Positions 5,422 to 57,580 of a DNA stretch of 64,000 bases are shown here, one piece after another; position 1 is the first letter of the stretch; every line of letters starts with the position of its first letter. Under the pieces are notes generated by a model. It worked only from the letters and a program-made list of their open reading frames with translations, searched no databases and had not been told where the DNA came from. The DNA is from Eledone cirrhosa (lineage: Eukaryota). A program made the position numbers and the translations under genes. Location of the stretch: contig OZ024741.1 in NCBI GenBank assembly GCA_964016885.1, positions 325,376,001 to 325,440,000 on the forward strand, given 5' to 3'.

Positions 5422-5425
<4 letters not shown>

Positions 5426-6984
5426 TGTTTTTCTCTCTCTCTCTCTCTTACTGCTCCCCCGTTCTCTCTGTTTCTCTTACTTTCTTTCGCCCCCTCTGTC
5501 ATGTCAGTTAACACTTTCTCTCTACTGACCTCTTCCTCACACTTCCACTGACTCACTCACTGTTTCTCCCCTTCTCACTTCACCCCGTTCGCGACGAAAA
5601 CAATTACCTTCTTTCTTACATTGGATTCATCTCGAAAGGTCTATTTTCTACGCGCTCATATATTCACCCAGCTTATACTTATAGAATAACTATGTAGCTT
5701 GTGTCTTTCCTATCTACGGTTAGCTTTCCTCTTTGTTGTTTACTTGTCTCACTCGCTTTACGCGTTTTAATTGTCCTAATAACTTAATTTAGTTATTATT
5801 GTACCAACGTGAGGTATATGATTTTTAATGCAATGAAATATCTATGATCGTTGGCAAATCACTGATGAGGGACTCATTTTATAACATGTTATCCATGTGC
5901 AACCTGCAGTATTCTTCTCCCCATTTTTTCACATATATTTACCTAAACTGCGATTCTGTTTTTCTCTCTCTCTCTCTTACTGCTCCCTCGTTCTCTCTGT
6001 TTCTCTTACTTTCTTTCGCCCCCTCTGTCATGTCAGTTAACACTTTCTCTCTACTGACCTCTTCCTCACACTTCTACTCACTCACTCACTGTTTCTCCCC
6101 TTCTCACTTCACCCCGTTCGCGACGAAAACAATTTCCTTCTTTCTTACATTGGATTCATCTCGAAAGGTCTATTTTCTACGCGCTCATATATTCACCCAG
6201 CTTATACTGATAGAATAACTATGTAGCTTGTGTCTTTCCTATCTACGGTTAGCTTTCCTCTTTGTTGTTTACTTGTCTCACTCGCTTTACGCGTTTTAAT
6301 TGTCCTAATATCTTAATTTAGTTATTATTGTACCAACGTGAGGTATATGATTTTTAATGCAATGAAATATCTATGATCGTTGGCAAATCACTGATGAGGG
6401 ACTCATTTTATAACATGTTATCCATGTGCAACCTGCAGTATTCTTCTCCCCATTTTTTCACATATATTTACCTAAACTGCGATTCTGTTTTTCTCTCTCT
6501 CTCTCTTACTGCTCCCTCGTTCTCTCTGTTTCTCTTACTTTCTTTCGCCCCCTCTGTCATGTCAGTTAACACTTTCTCTCTACTGACCTCTTCCTCACAC
6601 TTCTACTCACTCACTCACTGTTTCTCCCCTTCTCACTTCACCCCGTTCGCGACGAAAACAATTTCCTTCTTTCTTACATTGGATTCATCTCGAAAGGTCT
6701 ATTTTCTACGCGCTCATATATTCACCCAGCTTATACTGATAGAATAACTATGTAGCTTGTGTCTTTCCTATCTACGGTTAGCTTTCCTCTTTGTTGTTTA
6801 CTTGTCTCACTCGCTTTACGCGTTTTAATTGTCCTAATAACTTAATTTAGTTATTATTGCACCAACGTGAGGTATATGATTTTTAATGCAATGAAATATC
6901 TATGATCGTTGGCAAATCACTGATGAGGGACTCATTTTATAACATGTTATCCATGTGCAACCTGCAGTATTCTTCTCCCCATTT

Positions 6985-6990
<6 letters not shown>
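5422..6990 (+). repeat. Three near-identical ~529-bp tandem units, probably Penelope-derived/retrozyme-like
   Basis: Units start at 5422, 5953 and 6482; CTGATGA at 5862, 6391 and 6920; flanked by (TA)n; related pieces at 9943-10240 (-) and 20833-20903. Confidence 0.9.
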
Positions 6991-7026
<36 letters not shown>

Positions 7027-30889: not shown

Positions 30890-31140
30890 ATCGCGCAGTT
30901 AAACCACTGGGAGTGAAGAACCCCTAGCCCTTGTCAGGGCATTCTTCTAGGAGAAGGCATCTCAGGAAACTGGGTTAACTCCGACATAAAACCTGCGGCT
31001 CAGTAGTTACCGATGATGTTGATCTTTTCTTCTTTTCGGGTTATAGCTACTGTCGCTCAGAGAGTGGGATTGGCTCAGTGCACAGTCTTTCCTCACTTTA
31101 AAAATATTCGTCACGCACAGGCATTGCACGATTGCATTAA
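30890..31140 (+). mobile_element. RTE-derived subfamily B fragment
   Basis: Matches ~15157-15420. Confidence 0.75.
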
Positions 31141-31159
31141 CTAATAATTATTAATAGTG

Positions 31160-31497
31160 TATTATTATTCTTATTATTCTTTGAGTCGCAGTCATTGATG
31201 TTATTTAACTGGAAAGTTTGTTGAAATGAATATCAAGCCACTACCTGCAGCCTCAGATATTCAGGACGTATCGGAGGGTTCTTGCTGTTCCCAGCAAGCA
31301 TGCCTTGTGAAGTGTTCCAAAAAGCGGAGCGGGACCAATTTTCTTTAACCATCCTTGGAAACTCTTTGAGATAGTACCTAGTGCGCCTATGACAATCGGG
31401 ACCACTTTGACTTCATGGCAGTTCCAAATCCTTTTTACCCCCCACTTTAAGTCCTGGTATCGGTTAATTTTCTCCCTCTCCTTCTCTTGAGAATGCG
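31160..31497 (-). mobile_element. 3' fragment of a Dong/R4-type RLE retrotransposon, ending in TAA-like repeats
   Basis: EKEREKINRYQDL..IWNC..VVPIVIGALG..KACLLGTARTLR*; 3' junction in TTA-rich sequence. Confidence 0.85.
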
Positions 31498-34400
31498 ACC
31501 CTGGTGAGTGTGTATGCTCCAACTATGAATTCTGTCGATGAAGAAAAAGTGTCCTTTTACCATGCCTTGAAAGTTGTTTTAAGAAATATCCCTCAGGCAG
31601 ACAAAGTCATCGTGCTTGGTGACTTTAATGCTAGAGTGGGTAGGGATTTTAACACATGGAATGTAATCGGAAGGCATGGGGTGGGAAAGTGTAACAACAA
31701 TGGTATGCTCCTGCTGCAGATGTGTGAGGAGCTGGATCTGTGTGTTACCAACACCATGTTCCAAAAAAAGAACAAATTCAAGACCACATGGATGCATCCT
31801 GCATCTAAGGAATGGCATCTTTTGGACTACGTCCTAGTCAGGATGCGTGACAGACAGGATGTGCAGTGTGTTCGTGCTCTTCGTGGAGCTGAATGCTGGA
31901 CGGAGCACCGCCTGGTACGCGTAAAAATGAAACTAATCACTAAACGTAAAATCCGAGCTCCTGGTGTTGCCCTGCCCAGAAGATTGAATGCTGCTCGTCT
32001 TAAGGATTTAAATGTGAAGAGGACATTGCAAGAAGAGATGCAGGTTGCAGATTTTGGTGAGGATTGGCCGATCCTTAAAAAGTCGGTTTATGATGTAGGC
32101 AGGCGTGTTCTGGGATTGGTGCAGAGAAAACATCAGGACTGGTTTAATGAGAATGATGTACATATAGAAAACTTGTTGGCCGATAAGAGGCGTGCTCTGT
32201 CACGCTACTTGACGACAAAACCACAGGAGAAGAATATGTTGCATAATGAACTCAAGGATGTGAAATAACGTGTTAGGCGGAGTCTTTCTCAGATGAAGGA
32301 TCAGTGGTGGAGTGAGAAGGCTGATGAGATACAACCTGCGTCAGATTCCAATAACACAAAGCTGTTGTACAGTCTCTTGCGTGAAGTTTATGGACCGTCT
32401 TCTTCTCTGGTGACACCGCTTCGCAGCAAGGATGGCAAAGAACTTCTTCGTGACTCACAAGGAATTCTACGAAGGTGGCGAGAGCACTTTGATGATCTTT
32501 TGAATCAGCCGTCTTTAGTCAATGAAGATTTCCTCAATCTCATTCCAGAAAGTCCTGTGAAAGTAGCTCTCGCAGAACCTCCGACGCTTGTGGAGGTTGC
32601 AGTGGCTATCTCGAAGCTGAACAGTGGAAGGTCTCCAGGTATGGATGGCATACATGCTGAGCTCCTACAATATGGTGGTGAGAGATTCCTGCAACATCTT
32701 CACTCTTTGTTTGGCAGGATATGGGCTAATGAATCCGTACCTGAGGACTGGAGAGATGCAGCAAAGGTGGTCTTGTACAAGGGAAAGGGTAACAGGAATG
32801 ATTGTGGGAACTACAGAGGTATATCATTGCTTTCTGTTGTAGGGAAAGTTTAATGTAGGGTGCTTCTGGACCGTCTGTTGACACACATTGCAGATTGTGT
32901 TCTTCCTGAAAGTCAATCTGGTTTTCGTGCTGGACGCGGCACTACTGATATGATCTTCTCAGCTAGACAGCTCCAGGAGAAGTGCATGGAACAAGGTTTG
33001 GATCTGCATCAAATTTTTGTTGATCTGACAAAAGCTTTCGATACTGTTAACAGAAATGCATTATGGAAGGTTCTCTGAAACTTGGTTGCCCTGATAAGTT
33101 CCTTGCTTTAATTAGGTCTATCCATGACGACACGAAGGCTTGGGTTAATGTCGGAGGTAACATGTCGGAGCCTATCTCAGTAAAAAATGGAGTGAAACAG
33201 GGAGATATTCCAGCACCGACCCTGTTTGCAATATACTTTGCAATGGTTTTCTGTATTGCATTCAGGAATTGCGAGCATGGTGTTTACATCCGATATCGAA
33301 CCTCAAGTAGCATATTTAACATCAGGCGCTTTGCTGCAAAGACAAAAGTATTTACATCAATCATAAGAGACCTCTTGTATGCAGATGATTGCGATCTTGT
33401 AGCGCACACAAAGAGTGATATGCAGCACATTTTGAATGCATTTTCTGACGCTTGCACTGCCCTAGGATTGACTGCCAGTCTCAAGAAAACCGTCGTCATG
33501 TACCAACCTGCCCCTGGTAAGCAGTACAGTGAACCAAATATCTAGGTGTATGGTAAACGACTTGGAGTGGTTGATCAGTTTGTCTACCTGGGAAGCACTG
33601 TCAATCGATACAGTAACCTTGATAGTGAAATCTCACTTAGGATTAGGAAAGCAAGTGATGCTTTCGGAAAGCTAGAAAGGCGACTCTGGGGTCGGCGAGA
33701 CATATGCAAGAAGAAAAAGAGTAAAGGTGTACAAGGTATGTGTGCTCTCTTCTCTTCTTTAAGTCTGCGAGACCTGGGTCACATATTGACACCACCTTAA
33801 GCAATTGGAGCTTTTCCATCAGATGTGTCTCAGACGGATCCATGGCGTTCACTGGAGGGACCACATCAGTGATGTCGAGATTTTGGAAAGCCCTTTGTGA
33901 CAGTATAGAAGCTCTTGTGCTTAAGCAACGACTCTGTTGGAATGGTCACCTTGCCAGGATGAAGGATTCTAGAATACCCAAACAACTCTTTTATGGAGAG
34001 TTAGTTAAAGGAAAACGACCGCCACATAAACCAAAAAAGAGGTATAAGGATTCATTGAAAGCCTCTCTGAAAGACGCTAACATCTCTGCTGATACATGGG
34101 AAAATATTGCTGCTGATCGTAATAAATGGAGAAAGGCTGTATATGAGGGAAAAGTTGCCTTTGAGGCATCTCGAATCGCATACAAGAAAGTAAAGCGGCA
34201 TGTGAGGAAGGGCATTGCTGTTGCACTTCCAGACGGCGAGGGTCCTCCTATGGTACTGACATGCAGCGTCTGTGTGAGACTCTGCCTAAGCAAAGCTGGA
34301 CTCGAAAATCATCTTCGCAGTCATAAAGTAAGACCAGTGGTTGACTACCAGCCTGCTGTTGGAGATGCTACTCATCATGCTTGCCAAGCATGTGGTAGAG

Positions 34401-34755
34401 AATGTAAATCAGCAGGAGGGCTCAAACGACATGCAAAAGTACATGAACTCCAACCACAGCCGGCTATTCCCAGTGAATGTTTTGGTTGCCGACTCTGTGC
34501 AAGACCTTTTAGATCATTGGCTGGGCTAAAAAACCACATTCGATCGCAGCGCTGTTAATTGCTATCCTGTGTGTGTGTGTGTGTATAGATATGTATATGT
34601 GTGTGAGTGTGTGTGTATATATATATATGTATATTATTATTGTTGTTGTTGTCGTTATTATTATTGTTGTTATTATTATTGTTATTAATATATATATATA
34701 TATTTTTTCTCTCGTGCAATGGCCATACTCGATAACGAGGAGGCAGCTATCATTA
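31498..34755 (+). mobile_element. Second RTE-clade LINE copy with C-terminal zinc fingers and an intact 3' terminus; disrupted
   Basis: Highly similar to the 16945 copy; multiple stops and frameshifts; ends GCAGCTATCAT followed by TATG repeats. Confidence 0.95.
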
Positions 34756-34771
34756 TCAGGTATGTATGTAT

Positions 34772-34800
34772 GTTCTTCTGGTTTTATAAGTTCACAATGT
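34772..34800 (-). mobile_element. Extreme 3' tip of R4 family B in the RTE tail
   Basis: TTCTTCTGGTTTTATAA matches the 3' ends at 53992, 54905 and 55889. Confidence 0.6.
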
Positions 34801-35040: not shown

Positions 35041-35231
<191 letters not shown>

Positions 35232-35356
35232 TATATTGGTAAACGGAATAGAAAATGCTGACAAATTGTTCACAGTTGAAAAATGGTTTAATTAGGAATA
35301 AAAGAGTATTAGTGATTGTATGGGTTAGTATTCAGTTGTGGTTTTAAGTTTTTAAG

Positions 35357-35396
35357 TTTTTACCGGTTGCGCATTTCTAAATGCTTTTCAAAAATA
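35357..35396 (-). ncRNA. Minimal hammerhead-like motif in the pLTR (U3:A8, GCAA variant)
   Basis: Minus strand TTT-TTGAAAA-GCATT(TAGA)AATGC-GCAA-CCGG-TA|AAA. Confidence 0.55.
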
Positions 35397-35954
35397 ATTT
35401 TGAGATAGAGTGTCCGTGTTGTTTGCTCTGATCTGATCAGTTTTGGGAATTCTACCTGTTTTTATGTTAAAAAAGTGGCTCCAGCGTTACTTTGGTGTTG
35501 TAAAAATTCTTGTGGTCAAAACAATTTTGATTGGTCGGTAGAGGTCATGTGAATGTAAAAAATTGATTTTGCGCCAAGACTGTTTTTATGTTAAAAAAGT
35601 GGCTCCAGCGCTACTTGGTATTTGCAAAAATTCTTGTGGTCAAAACAATTTTGATTGGTCGGTAGAGGTCATGTGAATAAAAAATTGGTTTTGCGCCAAG
35701 ATTGAGAAATGACTCTTTCACAACAAATATGTGTGTGTGTGTGTGTGTAGTAGTAGTAGTAAGGTGTTCGATGTTGTGATAATGGTTAGCAGGGATGCGT
35801 GTCAAATGGCTATTAAGATAAGTGTGTGTGTGTGTGTATAGCAGAGTAATTCGTGGTAGCAGGGATGGTCAGTAAGAATGTGTCTGAAAGCAATGGGGGG
35901 CATTTTAGCATGTCAAAAGATATTTTTCAGCTTTTGTCTTATACGGAGAAGTGC

Positions 35955-35985
<31 letters not shown>

Positions 35986-36221
35986 TGTGTGTATAAGTCT
36001 CTTTGTATGTTAATGTACGCGTGTGTATGTGTGTGTGTATATATATGTGTGTGTGTGTGTGTGGGTGGACCAGTAGTTTTTTCCCCTGGTAAAATGGTGT
36101 ACATTATTCGATTTTTTCAGTAAAATCGGTTCTCTTAATAGAACATCAAAAATCTTAACAATAAAAGGTGTGAAATGATATTCACTATATATATATATAC
36201 GCATACATATATTCACTATAT

Positions 36222-36254
<33 letters not shown>

Positions 36255-36378
36255 CATATATTTTTTTGTGTTGCACCATAGAGCATGTGTGTTTACGTAT
36301 GTCATTGTGTTTATATGTGGGTAGAGATGTGTGCTGATGTAGGTATGTATGTTGACGTGTGTATGTTGTGGGTTCGTC

Positions 36379-37880
36379 TTAGGGAGAAGTGTTTAGACGG
36401 GGTCCGTATTTGTTAATGAAGTAAGATTCCTTGCTGATGCGCTGGGTGTGGGTGGCATTATCCTTAAATTTGTAGAGGGGAAAAATTCTGAAGTTGGGAT
36501 GATTTTGGGCGGCACAGGTATCAATGTGTTCACTCAGTGGTATTTTCCTGTATTCCCGTATTTTAATTTGGGATCTATGGACAGTCATGCGTTGGCGGAG
36601 GCTGTCTTTGGTCTGGCCTATGTATTGTTCTCGACAACCTGAGCAAGTTAATACATATATTAGATTTTCCGATGCACATGTGAAATTGTGTTTTACTATA
36701 AAACGTTGTCCATCTTTGAAATAGAATTCCGAACCCTCTATTAGGTTGATGCAAATGCCACAGTTGGGTCTATCGCATTTTTTTACTGTGGGTTTCGTTG
36801 TTGTGGTTGGCAGTACTTTGGCATGTGTTAGGATGTTTTTCATTGACTTGGATTGTCTTTTGCTCTTTATGATATCGTGTGTTCGTAGAATTTGGTTCAT
36901 TCTATGGTCCTTTTTCAACACAGGGATGTTCTGGAGGATGGTGTCAAAGGCCTCATTGTTGAGGGAGTTGTGAGTGGAGATGTATGGAAGGGCTTTTAGT
37001 TTCGGTTGATTTACTTTAGGGTGTCTAAGGTCCTGGGTACTGAGTTTTAGGGCACGTTGGATTCCATTGTCAATTAGTGATGCAGGGTAGTCCCTGCCTA
37101 TGAGTGTGTCCTTTAGTTCTTGTAGCCGTAAGTAGCAGATGTTTTTATTGGAGACTATAGTACAGATTCTCTTGGCTAAGTTAATTTTAACGTGTCTAGG
37201 GTGGCAAGAGTTGAAGGGGAGATATTGCTTGGAGTCTGTGGGCTTGTAGTATATGTCTGTTTCTATTTTTTTGTTATGGATCTTAATGAGGATGTCGAGG
37301 AAGGGGAGTTGTTGATGGCTGTATTCCATCGTGAAGTTAATATTCGTGTTGAGCCCATTTATAAGGGTGTGAAATTCTTTAAGTTTTTCGATGTTTTCGT
37401 GCCAAAGGATGAAGCAGTCATCTAGATATCGCTTCCAGTTCCTTTCAATGTGTAAGTGGAGGGTGTTTCCAAATTTGTTTAGGACTTTAGTGTAGAGGGT
37501 GATTTCCAGGTATCCCATGACTAGGTTGGCATAAGTGGGGGCTGTTTTCGTTCCCATAGCGGTCCCAGATTTCTGCCTGTAGGGTTTGTTATTGAAAACG
37601 AAGTAATTGTTCTCCAAGATAAATTTGAGTCCCTCTATCACGAATTCTTTTTTGATGCGTTGTGGGAGTTCATTGGGGAAATTATCCAGCCAGAATTGGA
37701 TAGCTTCTATTCCTAGGTTGTGGGGGATGTTGGAGTATAGGTTGACTACATCGAACGTAGGGTTTGTTCAGAAAGTGGCATATTAGGGAGGTGATTGAGC
37801 ATATCTAGGTCGTCCCTTATATAGCTTTTGATGTGTTTGAGGAAGGGTTTGAGAAGGGTATCAATGAAGTTGCTAAGACG
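36379..37880 (-). pseudogene. Penelope RT plus GIY-YIG endonuclease (truncated, frameshift near 37757)
   Basis: FDVVNLYSNIPH, GTAMGTKTAPTYANL, RYLDD, LPFLDI, linker CDRPNCGIC, LIYVLTC..QYIGQT. Confidence 0.93.
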
Positions 37881-38052
37881 GTGCATCAGCAAGGAATCTT
37901 ACTTCATTAACAAATACGGACCCCGTCTAAACACTTCTCCCTAAGACGAACCCACAACATACACACGTCAACATACATACTTACATCAGCACACATCTCT
38001 ACCCACATATAAACACAATGACACACATGCTCTATGGTGCAACACAAAAAAA

Positions 38053-38144
<92 letters not shown>

Positions 38145-38363
38145 ATATATGTATGTGTATATATATATAGTGAATATCATTTCACACCTTTTATTGTTAA
38201 GATTTTTGATGTTCTATTAAGAGAACCGATTTTACTGAAAAAATCGAATAATGTACACCATTTTACCAGGGGGAAAAAAATACTGGTCCACCCACCCCCA
38301 CACATACACACACACATATATACACACACACATACACACGCGTACATTAACATACAAAGAGAC

Positions 38364-38429
<66 letters not shown>

Positions 38430-38539
38430 TTCTCCGTATAAGACAAAAGCTGAAAAATATCTTTTGACATGCTAAAATACCCCCCATTGCTTTCAGACAC
38501 ATTCTTACTGACCATCCCTGCTACCACGAATTACTCTGC

Positions 38540-38614
<75 letters not shown>

Positions 38615-39030
38615 ATCTTAATAGCCATTTGACACACATCCCTGCTAACCATTATCACAACATCGAACACCTTACTACTACTACACACACACACACATAT
38701 TTGTTGTGAAAGAGTCATTTCTCAATCTTGGCGCAAAACCAATTTTTTATTCACATGACCTCTACCGACCAATCAAAATTGTTTTGACCACAAGAATTTT
38801 TGCAAACACCAAGTAGCGCTGGAGCCACTTTTTTAACATAAAAACAGTCTTGGCGCAAAATCAATTTTTTACATTCACATGACCTCTACCGACCAATCAA
38901 AATTGTTTTGACCACAAGAATTTTTGCAACACCAAAGTAACGCTGGAGTCACTTTTTTAACATAAAAACAGGTAGAATTCCCAAAACTAATCAGATCGGA
39001 GCAAACAGCACGGACACTCTATCTCAAAAT

Positions 39031-39070
39031 TATTTTTGAAAAGCATTTAGAAATGCGCAACCGGTAAAAA
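39031..39070 (+). ncRNA. Minimal hammerhead-like motif in the inverted pLTR copy
   Basis: TTT-TTGAAAA-GCATT(TAGA)AATGC-GCAA-CCGG-TA|AAA. Confidence 0.55.
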
Positions 39071-39226
39071 CTTAAAAACTTAAAACCACAACTGAATACT
39101 AACCCATACAATCACTAATACTCTTTTATTCCTAATTAAACCAATTTTCAACTGTGAACAATTTGTCAGCATTTTCTATTCCGTTTACCAATATATAATA
39201 ACTTGTGTGTTACACCTCTATTCTTT

Positions 39227-39316
<90 letters not shown>

Positions 39317-39445
39317 TATATACACATATGTACGTATGGGTTATATCGAACATTAATAATAATGTTCGATTCGTTTGTAAACAAACGAGCCCGATTAGAA
39401 GCTATGCCGTGCCGTCACTTGTTTGTTCAACACTGGCTTTGAGGA

Positions 39446-42799: not shown

Positions 42800-46060
<3,261 letters not shown>

Positions 46061-51943: not shown

Positions 51944-52000
<57 letters not shown>

Positions 52001-52206
52001 TTTAATTTCATTACATTTCTTATGAAATATTCCCAGTAAAACTAAAAAATAAAAGCAAAACAACACATATACACATATACAAAAATATAAATATGAATAA
52101 ATTGATAACGTAAAGGATGAAAATATGTAATATTTGCATGTATGTATGTATGTATGTATGTATGTATGTATGTATGTATGTATGTATGTATGTATGTATG
52201 TATGTA

Positions 52207-52688
52207 TGGTCGGGCTGTCGGAGACTAAATCGGCAACCCCACCAAGCTTGCTTGGTGAGGAGGATGATATTTGGACACCCTGCGGGATGAAATACAAGAC
52301 CCGGCAAAGGGCAGAGGAACTCAGCAGAATGAACGACCATCCAAATAACAATCTTTTTTTTTCACCTGGGAGTGAAAGGCCCCCAGTTCTTCTCACAACA
52401 CCTTTCTATGAGAGGGAGACTCTGAAAAAAACAAACAAACAAACCTGCAGTTTTGGAAGCATCCGATGATGTTGACCAGTTCTCCTTTTCGGGTAATGTT
52501 TTCGATGCTCAGAGAGTGGGATTGGTCGAGTGCAAAGCCTTTCCCCACTTAAAAACCTTCAAAGCACAGGTATTGCTTGTTCAGGATCTGTTACAGGTTC
52601 GTGTGGTTGCCCGTAGCCTAAAGGTGCACCGAACTCTATAATCTGACAAGCGATTGCAATACTCTTAGCAGAGTTTGCAGCCATCATA
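52207..52688 (+). mobile_element. Diverged bipartite RTE-derived element, subfamily C
   Basis: Homologous 5' hairpins and 3' GCAGCCATCAT; (TATG)n flanks. Confidence 0.7.
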
Positions 52689-52704
52689 TATGTACGTATG
52701 TATG

Positions 52705-53232
52705 TTTCTCTTTCTCTTAATTTTGAGTACATTTTTGACCGACCACCTCCCTGGTGGCAGGGTTATAAAAGGAAAGAAATTGTCATCTCTTGAACCGCAA
52801 GAATGTTTTGCAAAATTTGAAGGTGCCAGATATCGCGGCCATTTGTAGTCTATTGATTAGGGAGCTGTGCTCTTTGTCCACAAATCCTAGTTCAGTCAAA
52901 CTTTGGCTCAATTGGGTTGGTACATAACATGTAGCTCCAATAATGATGGGTATGAAGCTGAAGGTGTATCTTGGATACTGGATCTGTAAAATGTTCATCA
53001 ATGGTCCGTGGATGTACTCCTTCTCCTGTATTTTTGTTACAATATTGGCATCAAGTAGGCAGCTAATCTCTACAACAGAGCACGTTTTCAATGTGTGGTT
53101 CCAAGCAACAATATCTGGCCGGATGTGCTTTAATTTGGTGGCAGTTTTTATTTTCAGGTTCCACCAGTGTTTCTTAGTGACATCTATCTCAAAATATTCC
53201 TTCTAATTTGTTTTTAATTTTGTTTTCCTTAT
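52705..53232 (-). mobile_element. R4 family A 3' fragment (RLE)
   Basis: Homologous to 15508-16030; (TATG)n flanks. Confidence 0.88.
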
Positions 53233-53313
53233 GTATGTATGTATGTATGTATGTATGTATGTATGTATGTATGTATGTATGTATGTATGTATGTATGTAT
53301 GTATGTATGTATG

Positions 53314-53922
53314 TCAGGTCACCAGTTGGTGCTACTGGTAACATGTATCCCAGTACAACCTGTCTCATAGTCGGGTCGTTGGCGACTAAACTGGCAACCC
53401 CACCAAGGTTTCTTGGTGAGGAGGGTGACTTTGGAGATCCTGCAGGACTAAAAACAAAACCTGTCAAAGGGCAAAGGAGCTCTTAAGAGTCAATGGCCAT
53501 CCAAAATCACCGGGAGAGATGACCCCTTAGCCTTTGTCAAGGCAGAATTCTAGGAGAAGGAAAACTCTAATATAACACCTGCAACTCTGATGGTATCCAA
53601 TGATGTTGACTTGTTCTTCTTTTTGGTAAATATCATCTTGGTTAAGAGAGTGGGAATGGCTTTGTGCAGTGCCTTTGCTCACTATAAAAGCTTCACGGCA
53701 CAGGCATTGCTTTATATCTGGAGATCTCTCTGCAGTTGTCGTCACATGGTACCATGGGCCCAGCACTATGTGTCAATAATCGTCACAAGTGTAGTGTTTG
53801 TACCAGAGTTTTCAAGTCGCTGGCTGGACTAAAAAGTCACACTCGTTCAGCGCATCGGTAGGGGTTCTCCTACATGGATATGAAGTAGTGACCGTACTCG
53901 AAAACGAGTTGGCAACCACCAT
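53314..53922 (+). mobile_element. Full-length bipartite RTE-derived element, subfamily A
   Basis: Matches 24847-25455; (TATG)n on both sides. Confidence 0.88.
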
Positions 53923-53991
53923 GTATGTATGTATGTATGTATGTATGTATGTATGTATGTATGTATGTATGTATGTATGTATGTATGTATG

Positions 53992-54630
53992 TTCTTCTGG
54001 TTTTATAATTTCACAAAGTTTTACCAATAGAGAGAGAGTCGGTTTCTAACATAGACACAAGACTCTCTCATTGGAATTTACACAACATCAACTAGATAGA
54101 TTATGCATGTCTACATGCAATCATGTGTAGATATGGATGTTATTGTATGTGTGGATGTGTTTGTTTTGAGTTGTATGTGTGCATGTGTATATGCTTAGTA
54201 TCTGTACATGTGAATATGCAGTTATTAGATGCAACATTTTTGGAATGTTTTACATATTTTTACTGTTCCATTAATGGATTGTACTTGTAATTTCCTAACT
54301 AGTTGTGTTCTTTCAGTTCCTGTGAAGCCTAGCTTCTCAAGATTTGTATTGAGGCAGTTACTAACATATCCCAGTGCCCCAATAATCACAGGCATAAATC
54401 TGAAGGTGTAATCAGGGTGGAGTATCTGCAGATTTCTCATCAGTTCTGCATAAATATTCTCCTTTTCGCTAATCTTTGATATAATTAATATATTAGCATC
54501 TGCTGGGCAGCTAATTTCCACTACTGTGCATGCTTTCTTCTCCCTGTCCCATATAATATCTGGTCTGTTATGCCTGCATTTTATTGGGGTTTTTACTGGA
54601 ACATTCCACCAGTACTCTTTCATATTATGT
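53992..54630 (-). mobile_element. R4 family B 3' fragment (RLE)
   Basis: HNRPDIIWD..VVEISCPAD..PVIIGALG; (TATG)n flanks. Confidence 0.88.
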
Positions 54631-54638
54631 ATGTATGT

Positions 54639-54855
54639 ATTGCTTTATATCTGGAGATCTCTCTGCACTTGTCGTCACATGGTACTATGGGCCTAGCACT
54701 ATGTGTCAATAATTGTCACAAGTGTAGTGTTTGTACCAGAGTTTTTAAGTCGCTGGCTGGACTAAAAAGTCACACTCGTTTATTGCATCGGTAGGGGTTC
54801 TCCTACATGGATATAAAGTAGTGGCCGTACTCGAAAACGAGTTGGCAGCCACCAT
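54639..54855 (+). mobile_element. RTE-derived element, 3' part
   Basis: Zinc-finger remnant [18 protein letters not shown] and family 3' end. Confidence 0.85.
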
Positions 54856-54904
54856 GTATGTATGTATGTATGTATGTATGTATGTATGCATACATGTATG
54901 TATG

Positions 54905-55788
54905 TTCTTCTGGTTTTATAATTTTACAAAGTTTTACCAATAGAGAGAGAGAGTCGGTTTCTAACAAAGACACAAGAGTCTCTCATTTGAATTTACACAA
55001 CATCAACTAGGTAGACTCAACAGTCGAGGTAGACTCGGATGGTACACGTGGTGTCAAATTTCTTCGATTATTATTATTATTTCTTCGATTATTATTATTA
55101 TCGATAGTGTTTTCCCCAGCATTCGAGGTAGACTTAGATGGCACAGGTGGTGTCAAGTTTCTTACAGGCATAGTTGTTTCAAGGCGCTGTTCGACCTGGC
55201 TGCTAGGAAGTCTGGTAGTATGGCGACCTGTAGCACGTGTTGTTGATTCCATGTTTGTTGTGGGGGACTTACAATTAATAATATTTATCTTATTTTTACG
55301 TTCAACAAACGTCGCTTGTTGGCGTAATTGTTACGCTGTGAAATAATTTAGCTCTGGGTGCATTTCGTCCCAGTGTAGCTTCATTCTGTTCATATAGCCA
55401 ATGGAGGGATTGTTTTTTGCCATTTCATAACAATTAAATAAATCATTAAGTTCGCAACTCCAAGAGAAATGCGATTTATAATTTCGGTTTCTTCTGTAGC
55501 TACAACTGAATAAAGTTTGTTTACCTTTCTTGTTGGTTGTCTTCGATACTTCCTTAATTTTGTTGTTGATGTTGTGTTCAGCCATGCTGTTTGTAGCAAA
55601 TCCTTGTAAAATGAATTATGTATTTAGTCGGATATCTCTACGAATTCGAATAAAAGGTGTCTTCAGAAGATATAGTTAGAAGTTATTCAACATGACTGTA
55701 GTTGTGGCATTACTGTCGGAGATAGTATTCATCTTAAATTTAATAAATAGTCTCCCACGCCAAAATATGCGACTGGTCGCGTTGACTG
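54905..55788 (-). mobile_element. Internally deleted R4 family B element (5' end and N-terminal coding region fused to the 106-bp 3' terminus)
   Basis: WSCELNDLFNCYEMA..GYMNRMKLHWDEMHP..QLRQQA resembles the R4 N-terminal motif; 54905-55010 is the family B 3' end; (TATG)n on both sides. Confidence 0.75.
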
Positions 55789-55888
55789 TATGTATGTATG
55801 TATGTATGTATGTATGTATGTATGTATGTATGTATGTATGTATGTATGTATGTATGTATGTATATATGTATGTATGTATGTATGTATG

Positions 55889-57280
55889 TTCTTCTGGTTT
55901 TATAATTTCACAAACTTTTACCAATAGAGAGAGAGTCGGTTTCTAAAATAGACACAAGACTCTCTCATTGGAATTTACACAACATCAACTAGGAAGACAT
56001 GTATGTATGCATGCATCTATAAATATGGATGTTATTGTATGTGTGGATGTGTATGTTTTGAGTTGTATGTGTGCATATATATATGCTTTGCATCTGTACA
56101 TGTGTATATGCAGTTATTAGATGCAACATTTTTGGAATGCTTTACATATTTTTACTGTTCCATTAATGGATTGTACTTGTAATTTCCTAACTAGTTGTGT
56201 TCTTTCAGTTCCTGTGAAGCCTAACTTCTCAAGATTTGTATTGAGGCAGTTACTAACATACCCCAGTGCCCCAATAATCACAGGCATAAACCTGAAGGTG
56301 TAATCAGGGTTGAGTATCTGCAGATTTCTCATCAGTTCTGCATAAATATTCTCCTTTTCACTAATCTTTGATATTATATTGGCATCTGCTGGGCAGCTAA
56401 TCTCCACTACTGTGCATGCTTTCTTCTCTCTGTCCCATATCATAATATCTGGTCTATTATGCCTGCATTTTATTGGGATTTTTACTGGAACATTCCACCA
56501 GTACTCTTTCATATTATGTACATGGATGTCTTCCACATTGCTGTAGCTTTTAATGTGTTTATTATCGGAGCTATCTTTTTTACGAACTGCATTGTACAGT
56601 GTGTTGGCCACTACATCATGCCTCATAGGTAAATAGTACCGCGATGACATCTTTGGACAGCTGCTGATGACATGGGTGATATCCTCGATGTTAGTTCTGC
56701 AGAGTCTGCACTTGTTATCACATCTAGGTGTTTTGCCTGCATCCCTATCTCTTTTGTGAATCAGGTATTTCGTGTTAATCTCCTGTTCTTGGATTGCAAA
56801 AGCGTATCCTTTAAAGTGGGAACCAATATAGCGGTTGTTGGTCCAAGATAGACTACTTTCCTTATCTATATTACTCTCACGCTGGAGCTTCCTGGCAACA
56901 TATCCATGCATGATTTTTTTTTTCATCCATTGATTCACTGCGATACTGCTGAGCGACTTCCCTGGGTGTGAGTTTTTGATTATCACACAGGGAATATCTC
57001 TCGAGGAGTTCCTTCCCAACTCTCATGATTTTATCTGTTTCATGCAGATAGACTTGCTCGAGAGACGGGCTCCTACGCTTTGATTCGTAGATGTTGTCGG
57101 AGAGATATGATGCGACATTCAAATGCTGTCTGGACTGATGTTAGGCCTCTGCCTCGCTGCTTACGTTTCAAGTAAAGGCCGTCTATGTCACTGTTGATGT
57201 GGAAGTTTCCGGTGTTGTTTAGTATTTTTCGAGTTCCAACATCAACTGCTCAGATTTCGTCTATCGTCCAATTGAGTGTT
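55889..57280 (-). mobile_element. R4 family B 5'-truncated copy (CCHC knuckle plus RLE)
   Basis: CRLC..EDITHVISSC, RHD, RPDIMIWD, VVEISCP; frameshifts upstream. Confidence 0.9.
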
Positions 57281-57530
57281 GATCGTCCTTTGTCAGTGTT
57301 GAACAAAAGGGCAACGATGGTTGCCGAACACTGTACGGCTAATAATTTACAAACAAACCGAGCATTATAATAAATGTTCTGTAAACCCATGCGTACATAT
57401 ATATATATGTGTGCATGTATGTATATATATACATACTACTGTACGTCTGTATACATATGTGTATGTACGTATACATACTTATATTTAAGTATCAGCCGTA
57501 TTAAGAGTGAGAAATGAAATTGCATTTTTT

Positions 57531-57580
<50 letters not shown>

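Follow-up and report, generated by a model that had tools for sequence, protein, structure and literature searches.

A mixed array of R4-type and RTE-derived elements in Eledone cirrhosa, probably built on one (TATG)n repeat used from opposite strands

A stretch of 64,000 nt from the genome of Eledone cirrhosa (assembly GCA_964016885.1, contig OZ024741.1, C2 in our numbering), here called the window, contains an array of two kinds of long interspersed nuclear elements (LINEs) around tracts of the tetranucleotide repeat (TATG)n. The array, at 52141-57277, consists of three plus-strand pieces derived from RTE elements that alternate with four minus-strand pieces of R4 elements across TATG tracts. 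The RTE-derived pieces belong to two families, derivative A (twice) and derivative C (once), and the R4 pieces to the families R4A and R4B. We conclude that the array is probably a stack of seven separate-looking insertions, in which two unrelated LINE clades target one existing (TATG)n from opposite strands. A shared landing site is likelier than a self-made tail because both kinds of element are flanked by TATG elsewhere in the genome. An earlier note on this DNA had given the same order, strands and borders, which match our annotated pieces, and had read them as a self-reinforcing loop in which RTE creates targets, R4 inserts into and duplicates them, and RTE derivatives re-insert. A one-way dependency, with the RTE family making the target and R4 using it, was not supported. 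Coordinates are positions within the window, and genome-wide counts cover the 3.0-Gb genome.

R4 ends in TATG

R4A and R4B are LINEs of the restriction-like endonuclease (RLE) type and are tied to (TATG)n in a fixed phase and orientation. Exact 3'-end motifs were found 4,561 times for R4B and 3,764 times for R4A in the genome. TATG stands directly before 3,947 of the 4,561 R4B ends. The background, taken from 100 evenly spaced 10-kb pieces that together formed a random sample of 1 Mb, is 0.66% of positions. Sampled junctions end exactly in TATG in 64/70 R4B and 38/50 R4A copies, and TATGTATG was seen within 24 bp of the 3' junction in 43/50 R4A copies. The reverse (CATA) orientation was found at none of 149 sampled junctions. 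All six R4 3' junctions in the window (15508, 34773, 52705, 53992, 54905 and 55889) follow TATG in the same phase and orientation, as the earlier note had claimed, with one start corrected from 34772 to 34773. The tabulation of R4 flanks that the note had proposed thus showed enrichment for TATG and a non-random orientation.

The repeat is also found on the other side of R4: of 100 copies in which both ends could be inspected, 69 have TATGTATG at the 5' side. Two copies break this rule at the 5' side, one with (CATA)n in reverse orientation (L179) and one with (TTC)n (L109). That R4 duplicates its target, as had been proposed, could not be shown. By eye, the target duplication is at most ~4-8 bp in 8 informative copies; two copies, L163 and L268, fit a duplication of 14-17 bp instead (also by eye). 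A preference of R4 for the left edge of tracts was considered and dropped, since the difference (12 versus 4 cases) was not significant in a paired test.

Flanks and target duplications of derivative A

Derivative A is common in the genome, with 24,906 exact matches to its 3' motif and 9,488 to its 5' motif, and has a fixed 3' end, CCACC-AT. This end is followed by ATGT repeats in 8,020 copies and by AT repeats in 6,475. AT tracts are 17 times commoner than ATGT tracts (2,509 versus 145 per Mb); relative to the number of tracts, derivative A prefers ATGT to AT by a factor of about 20. In 75 of 103 distinct copies, the 32 bp upstream of the 5' end contain TATGTATG, compared to 0.8% of 20,000 random 32-mers. 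The same was seen in 38/62 copies that were not found via R4 and in 40/57 truncated copies (by subtraction), which lack the initial TATG of the element itself. The type of repeat before derivative A is correlated with the type after it (Spearman 0.41 for TATG and 0.58 for AT; 2x2 p=5e-5).

Target duplications could be followed in five copies through marker letters, and all begin right at the end of derivative A (14 bp in L211, 12 bp in L226, 9 bp in L245, 13 bp in L152 and 15 bp in L268). Their range of 9-15 bp agrees with the target duplications of ~6-15 bp that characterize the RTE clade, along with APE and RT in a single ORF and a short, repeat-like 3' end. In none of the five does a repeat of the element's own stand between derivative A and the duplication. 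As described in passages of Tay et al. 2010 (PMC2887409), an RTE that generates a microsatellite leaves a one-sided repeat between its end and the duplication. Derivative A instead has the repeat mostly on both sides and, because the duplications start at the element end, mostly does not bring the repeat. The claim that RTE creates the target therefore could not be upheld: the derivative ends in CCACC-AT, and the repeat downstream mirrors the 5' flank.

Full-length derivative A appears to begin with its own TATG (window 53310-53320; L197, L211, L216, L226, L236, L244, L247 and L250). These letters match the target repeat and could help 5' joining. Two copies of derivative A face each other at L260:5095-6163. 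Also, an element ending in (GAT)n was seen immediately in front of TATG tracts occupied by R4A or derivative A (L171, L207 and L231).

Structure of the array

The array begins at its left end with a (TATG)17 tract (52141-52208). All tracts are given as read on the plus strand. The tract is followed by an older, 5'-truncated copy of derivative C (52209-52685, plus strand), whose 3' part matches other copies at 92-96%. An imperfect AT/TATG spacer, with TATG as its last letters (52686-52704), leads to an old, 5'-truncated R4A that retains the RLE end and the 3' untranslated region (UTR) (52705-53228, minus strand). With 48 private changes at 497 sites, this R4A is the oldest dated piece. A (TATG)21 tract (53230-53313), whose last unit is probably the first four bases of derivative A itself, precedes a full-length derivative A (53314-53920, plus strand) with an RTE-type 5' UTR, a 3' piece with a C2H2-finger remnant and 9/581 private changes. 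After another (TATG)17 tract (53921-53991) there is a 5'-truncated R4B (53992-54630, minus strand; 5/538 private changes), the truncated end of which overlaps the next tract, a (TATG)3 spacer (54626-54638), by a few letters. A 3' piece of derivative A (54639-54853, plus strand; element positions 393-607) and an imperfect TATG tract (54854-54904) come next.

The right part of the array contains two more R4B copies on the minus strand. The left one (54905-55787) has an internal deletion, which leaves ~110 bp from the end of the 4.1-kb element fused to its first ~770 bp, with the true 5' end retained. A TATG tract of 18+6 units (55788-55888) separates it from the right one, a 5'-truncated copy with the CCHC finger and RLE (55889-57277). 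TATG is absent from the 5' side of this last copy, and its truncated end adjoins another common repeat (57278-57540), which matches many random loci at 83-88%. The N-terminal coding part of R4B (55018-55163) has internal repeats of ~47-80 bp, and their number seems to vary among copies. The internally deleted R4B was considered as a non-autonomous family, but its look-alike at L024 proved to be the 5' part of an upstream copy. A second copy of the deletion junction was not noticed in the sampled loci, although no genome-wide search for it was made, and the deletion is treated as a one-off.

Copies from the array resemble one another no more closely than they resemble copies elsewhere in the genome (the share of genome copies that are as close or closer was 0.57, 0.36, 0.06 and 0.27). 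Since they are no more alike than this, and since their ages and truncation points differ, the pieces are likely separate insertions. Local tandem duplication as the origin of the array was rejected on the same comparison. An old core of derivative C and R4A likely stands at the left, with younger copies added rightward. The elements are also clustered in the genome, as 14 of 99 gaps between R4B copies are below 7 kb (1.1 expected) and 22 of 59 R4A copies have an R4B at a distance of up to 7 kb (1.4 expected).

Order of insertion

The layout is silent on which element came first because either order gives the same picture. Private changes were compared in 40 adjacent pairs. R4 and the RTE side were each the younger partner in 20 pairs, and in each case 5 of the 20 reached p<0.05. 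The nested-age check suggested in the earlier note thus did not yield the preferred order of RTE first and R4 second. In family A, the ratio of younger R4 to younger RTE side was 13:17. By a majority-letter measure, which covered fewer loci, R4 was the less diverged partner in 6/22 pairs. No duplication carrying the partner's letters, which could mark the order, was found in either direction.

Both orders of insertion occur, and re-insertion of RTE derivatives, another part of the earlier proposal, was confirmed. In the window, derivative B (14933-15468, plus strand; 20/454 private changes) has behind it a TATG tract that holds a very young, 5'-truncated R4A (15508-16906, minus strand; 0/1,343 private changes) with TATG on both sides. 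R4A is the younger element here. Within the array, derivative A at 53314 sits in the 5' tract of the R4A at 52705 and is the younger of the two. A zinc-finger RTE copy (16945-20333), young and lacking the terminal ~45 bp, starts directly in the TATG tract 5' of the R4A at 15508-16906.

Adjacency of RTE tails and R4 ends

Tail adjacency was counted at the first 120 junctions listed on contig C1 (70 R4B and 50 R4A, with tandem duplicates kept). RTE-family tails hold 45 of these junctions, another 25 are at the 5' end of another R4, and 50 are in free tracts. The proportion in tails was 4/11 in the random sample (by eye) and 3/29 among best BLAST hits. In the window, five of the six R4 junctions lie 18-71 bp behind an RTE-family 3' end, as the earlier note had described, and the remaining one follows the 5' end of another R4B. 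The share in the window is above that in all three genome samples. The spacers between RTE tail and R4 measure 24 bp or less in 26/59 cases and exactly 15 bp in 7, which is near the RTE duplication length. A composite unit carried by R4 read-through was rejected, as truncation points and spacers differ among the tail-adjacent copies.

Protein and relatives of R4A and R4B

Full-length elements are ~4.1 kb for R4B and ~4.4 kb for R4A. One R4A copy (L261) has an intact single open reading frame (ORF) of 1,169 amino acids, in which Pfam detected RVT_1 (E=4e-25) and zf-RVT. No endonuclease family or apurinic/apyrimidinic endonuclease (APE) domain was detected in this ORF by Pfam. The only PDB matches of the R4A protein are R2 proteins. 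By eye, the motifs CxxC...H...C, RHD and RPD...VVEISC...K are present in both R4A and R4B, a pattern that we take to be a CCHC finger and a restriction-like endonuclease. Sequence inspection and Pfam gave no N-terminal zinc finger. The N-terminus of R4A is predicted to form a three-helix domain (predicted local distance difference test of 91-95 over residues 21-70). Its top fold matches are mostly Myb/SANT-like, including Zeste (Z 5.6, root-mean-square deviation 2.5, 64 aligned residues) and TRF1 (Z 5.2, root-mean-square deviation 3.4, 65 aligned residues), both with Z below 8. Sequence searches with this N-terminus gave no match. An Rfam scan of 52000-57500 gave no ribozyme match, the type sought at the 5' end being similar to that of hepatitis delta virus, and no dedicated pseudoknot search was made; the scan otherwise gave only repeat-driven microRNA matches below threshold.

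Among named sequences, the R4A protein is closest to one from Argonauta hians, with 65% identity. Among 80 metagenome relatives of R4A and R4B, flanks were read for 24. The relatives L331, L332 and L334 are all 43-49% identical to R4A/B; (CTTA)n is found at the end of L332 and L334 and on the 5' side of L331. CTTA differs from CATA by one letter. Two other close relatives (L333 and L335) had no flanking repeat in the DNA examined, and most of the distant relatives end in (TAA)n. In a FastTree phylogeny, five tetranucleotide-flanked rows and 17 TAA-flanked rows are split by a branch with Shimodaira-Hasegawa-like support of 100, although the root is unsure. The tree had 36 rows and left out one R4B copy, 8 metagenome rows (mostly without a readable flank) and 3 proteins. 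The labelled group nearest to R4A/B in the tree is the 17 unnamed TAA-flanked relatives, and no named R4/Dong reference was among the matches. The (TAA)n target of Dong in the narrow sense is not shared by R4A/B, whose target is (CATA)n and whose nearest flank-labelled relatives are in (CTTA)n. We regard (CATA)n as a probable addition to the target repeats of the Dong/R4 group, and R4A/B likely form a tetranucleotide-specific branch together with the (CTTA)n relatives.

The zinc-finger RTE and the RTE-derived families

The plus-strand pieces of the array are RTE-derived. The window contains a rearranged zinc-finger RTE (30892-34751, plus strand) with a 5' UTR, APE, reverse transcriptase (RT), C2H2 fingers, a microsatellite 3' UTR and a terminal ~45 bp. 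Exo_endo_phos, RVT_1 and C2H2 were detected in its broken frames. Behind its end lies a 25-bp stub of an R4B 3' end (34773-34797, minus strand). We assign the clade name RTE tentatively, from the domain layout and the published description of RTE-2_OV.

Derivative B has no ORF. Its 5' part is the UTR that lies upstream of the RTE ORF in L064, and its 3' part is the last ~45 bp of the zinc-finger RTE. Since an RTE 5' UTR is joined to the RTE's terminal ~45 bp, derivative B is a bipartite non-autonomous RTE. Derivatives A and C share the RTE 5' UTR with family B at ~70% (C versus A and B at ~67-68%), and the 3' part of derivative A encodes a C2H2 remnant that resembles the last finger of the RTE. 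A direct autonomous parent of families A and C was not seen in the sampled loci, although no dedicated search for one was made.

Discussion

Target-primed reverse transcription is the established basis of the steps proposed here. The restriction-like endonuclease of R4, guided by the putative Myb-like domain at the N-terminus, would nick the TATG strand and prime from it, and R4 would thus read on the CATA strand. The RTE enzyme would nick the opposite strand, where the terminal AU of its RNA could pair with the target in the way proposed in passages of PMC6007223, and the RTE would thus read on the TATG strand. The opposite orientation of R4 and RTE would follow from priming on opposite strands of one repeat. 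Each insertion would split a tract into two usable tracts, the RTE would add a short duplication, and slippage would likely regrow the tracts. Because insertion leaves the repeat on both sides, the site would stay a target and collect copies. Feedback would then be mutual and would act via the shared target, without either element providing a tail for its partner. Since the RTE family and R4 use one repeat on opposite strands, polarized mixed stacks can be explained without a one-way dependency.

It is unlikely that the RTE family carries a (TATG)n tail and seeds tracts into whose tails R4 inserts afterwards. Such a course would fit the finding that 45 of 120 R4 junctions lie in RTE tails, a roughly fourfold excess over run-matched sites, and also the clear young R4A copies behind older RTE-family ends (window 15508, L268 and L148). 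RTEs are also known to seed microsatellites in Lepidoptera, according to passages of PMC2887409. That source places the repeat between element and duplication, whereas the duplication starts at the element end in our five marker cases. Derivative A has AT after its end in the 6,475 copies mentioned above and TATG before its 5' end in most copies, the order of insertion is even, and R4 is the less diverged partner in only a minority of pairs by majority letters. The idea that the tail of one element is the target of the other holds insofar as tail adjacency is enriched, but it is not the rule, since 75 of the 120 junctions lie outside RTE tails. Local tandem duplication or passive survival in repeat-rich DNA of low constraint, without any active targeting, is highly improbable. 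The genome is very rich in microsatellites, and tandem duplicates do occur at L153-L156 and L044. However, a fixed phase and strand at thousands of junctions cannot come from survival, which largely refutes this explanation for R4; the youngest copies show the same flanks, and the differing truncation points and ages within the array, together with copies that are not closer mutually than to genome copies, argue against duplication.

Several observations weigh against a plainly shared target. Only 10.8 of the 120 junctions would be expected in tails after matching for run length, and availability of the target alone may therefore not be the whole story. The excess is probably real and two- to fourfold, measured against a thin null from few tracts (in the random sample, tails hold 9-19% of TATG sites at different run lengths, with bootstrap upper limits of 16-38%). 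Among long tracts of the random sample, at least 16/46 (at least 4 units) and at least 10/26 (at least 6 units) abut these families, which fits both targeting and making. In 11/103 copies of derivative A, TATG stands only downstream of the 3' end, as a self-made tail would give, and these copies may be exceptions that bring the repeat. R4 is the younger partner in 7/10 pairs of the older family B and the RTE side in 3. Pure repeats hide both duplications and insertion order. Also, arrays at L153-L156 and L044 contain near-identical units that share their truncation points, which indicates that segmental duplication contributes to the growth of some stacks.

The fourfold tail excess could point to a direct coupling, in which the insertion of one clade makes the site more favourable to the other than the available repeat alone would, for instance through RTE machinery that uses R4 nicks or junctions or through purified, lengthened tracts beside new insertions. 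The short spacers and the strong per-tract preference of derivative A for ATGT are in line with this. We nevertheless consider it quite improbable, given that short left tracts are common for R4 in general (24 bp or less in 36/100 copies), that the asymmetry between left and right tracts is not significant (p=0.10-0.16), that neither partner's letters were found in a duplication, and that the best-hit sample has no excess. A bolder version of the shared target is rather unlikely: two unrelated LINE clades would have converged on one tetranucleotide repeat and be coupled beyond sharing it, the RTE family would be a true microsatellite-specific lineage, either insertion would actively raise the chance of the other adjoining it, and polarized, self-extending stacks would make many long (TATG)n tracts.

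The following comparison with known systems is based on passages of the cited reports. Dong elements have a single ORF with RT, a CCHC finger and RLE, no N-terminal zinc finger and a predicted Myb-like N-terminus, and they insert into microsatellites (PMC7998251, PMC3812793). Their target is TAA in insects, molluscs and cnidarians (PMC7998251). R4A/B match the Dong elements (Bombyx Dong, DongAg, DongBg of a snail, Dong1/2 of an ostracod and Dong-R4 of Octopus vulgaris) in ORF layout and microsatellite insertion. They differ in targeting (CATA)n, not (TAA)n, and in standing on a separate branch, with (CTTA)n relatives, from the 17 TAA-flanked ones. Dong-R4 is abundant and was recently active in octopus (PMC13282606); the octopus passages of PMC13282606 and PMC9115989 give no target sequence. 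Microsatellite targeters include Dong for TAA and Waldo for ACAY (PMC3812793). The (ACAT)n of Waldo is the same repeat as ours, which was therefore already known as a retrotransposon target (PMC3812793). Waldo is an APE-type insect element of the R1 clade, in contrast to the RLE element and RTE family that use opposite strands here.

On the RTE side, the bipartite non-autonomous RTEs Bov-A, RTESINE1/2, MAR4 and WALLSI3 likewise join an RTE 5' UTR to an RTE 3' end (PMC5786205). RTE-2_OV of octopus is described as having APE, RT, C2H2 fingers and a microsatellite-rich 3' UTR, like the RTE in the window (PMC9115989). Insertion sites of lepidopteran RTEs are described as not sequence-specific (PMC2887409), whereas a strong ATGT/AT bias was seen here on both flanks. 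In Nishiyama and Ohshima 2018 (PMC6007223), the RNA ends in repeat letters that agree with the first letters of the duplication, via pairing or choice of the cleavage site, and this resembles our case. The signature in that study is a stretch of T ahead of the duplication, in contrast to the microsatellite that is shared with a second clade here.

In the literature searched, we found neither a two-clade array of the present kind nor a Dong/R4 element specific for CATA or another tetranucleotide; Repbase, Dfam and supplements were outside its scope and may hold such an element. These results add a likely (CATA)n target and a branch with four-letter repeats (CATA and CTTA) to the Dong/R4 group, for which TAA is the reported microsatellite target. 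The young R4A family with its intact ORF makes this target switch directly testable. They also link an RTE family to this repeat on the opposite strand, although RTE elements are generally held to be unselective. In this genome, multi-copy elements flank many of the long TATG tracts, which would therefore be poor choices as markers.

Other features

A Penelope-like element (35096-39332) has an ORF with RT and GIY-YIG on the minus strand (36379-37767), long inverted terminal copies and an internal duplication of 125 bp. A near-perfect 530-bp tandem repeat occurs threefold at 5422-6999. Positions 42800-46060 are taken up by a long, degenerate satellite of low complexity that matches itself in inverted orientation. 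Outside the window, repeat-like matches on both strands were seen at L069:8942-9179.

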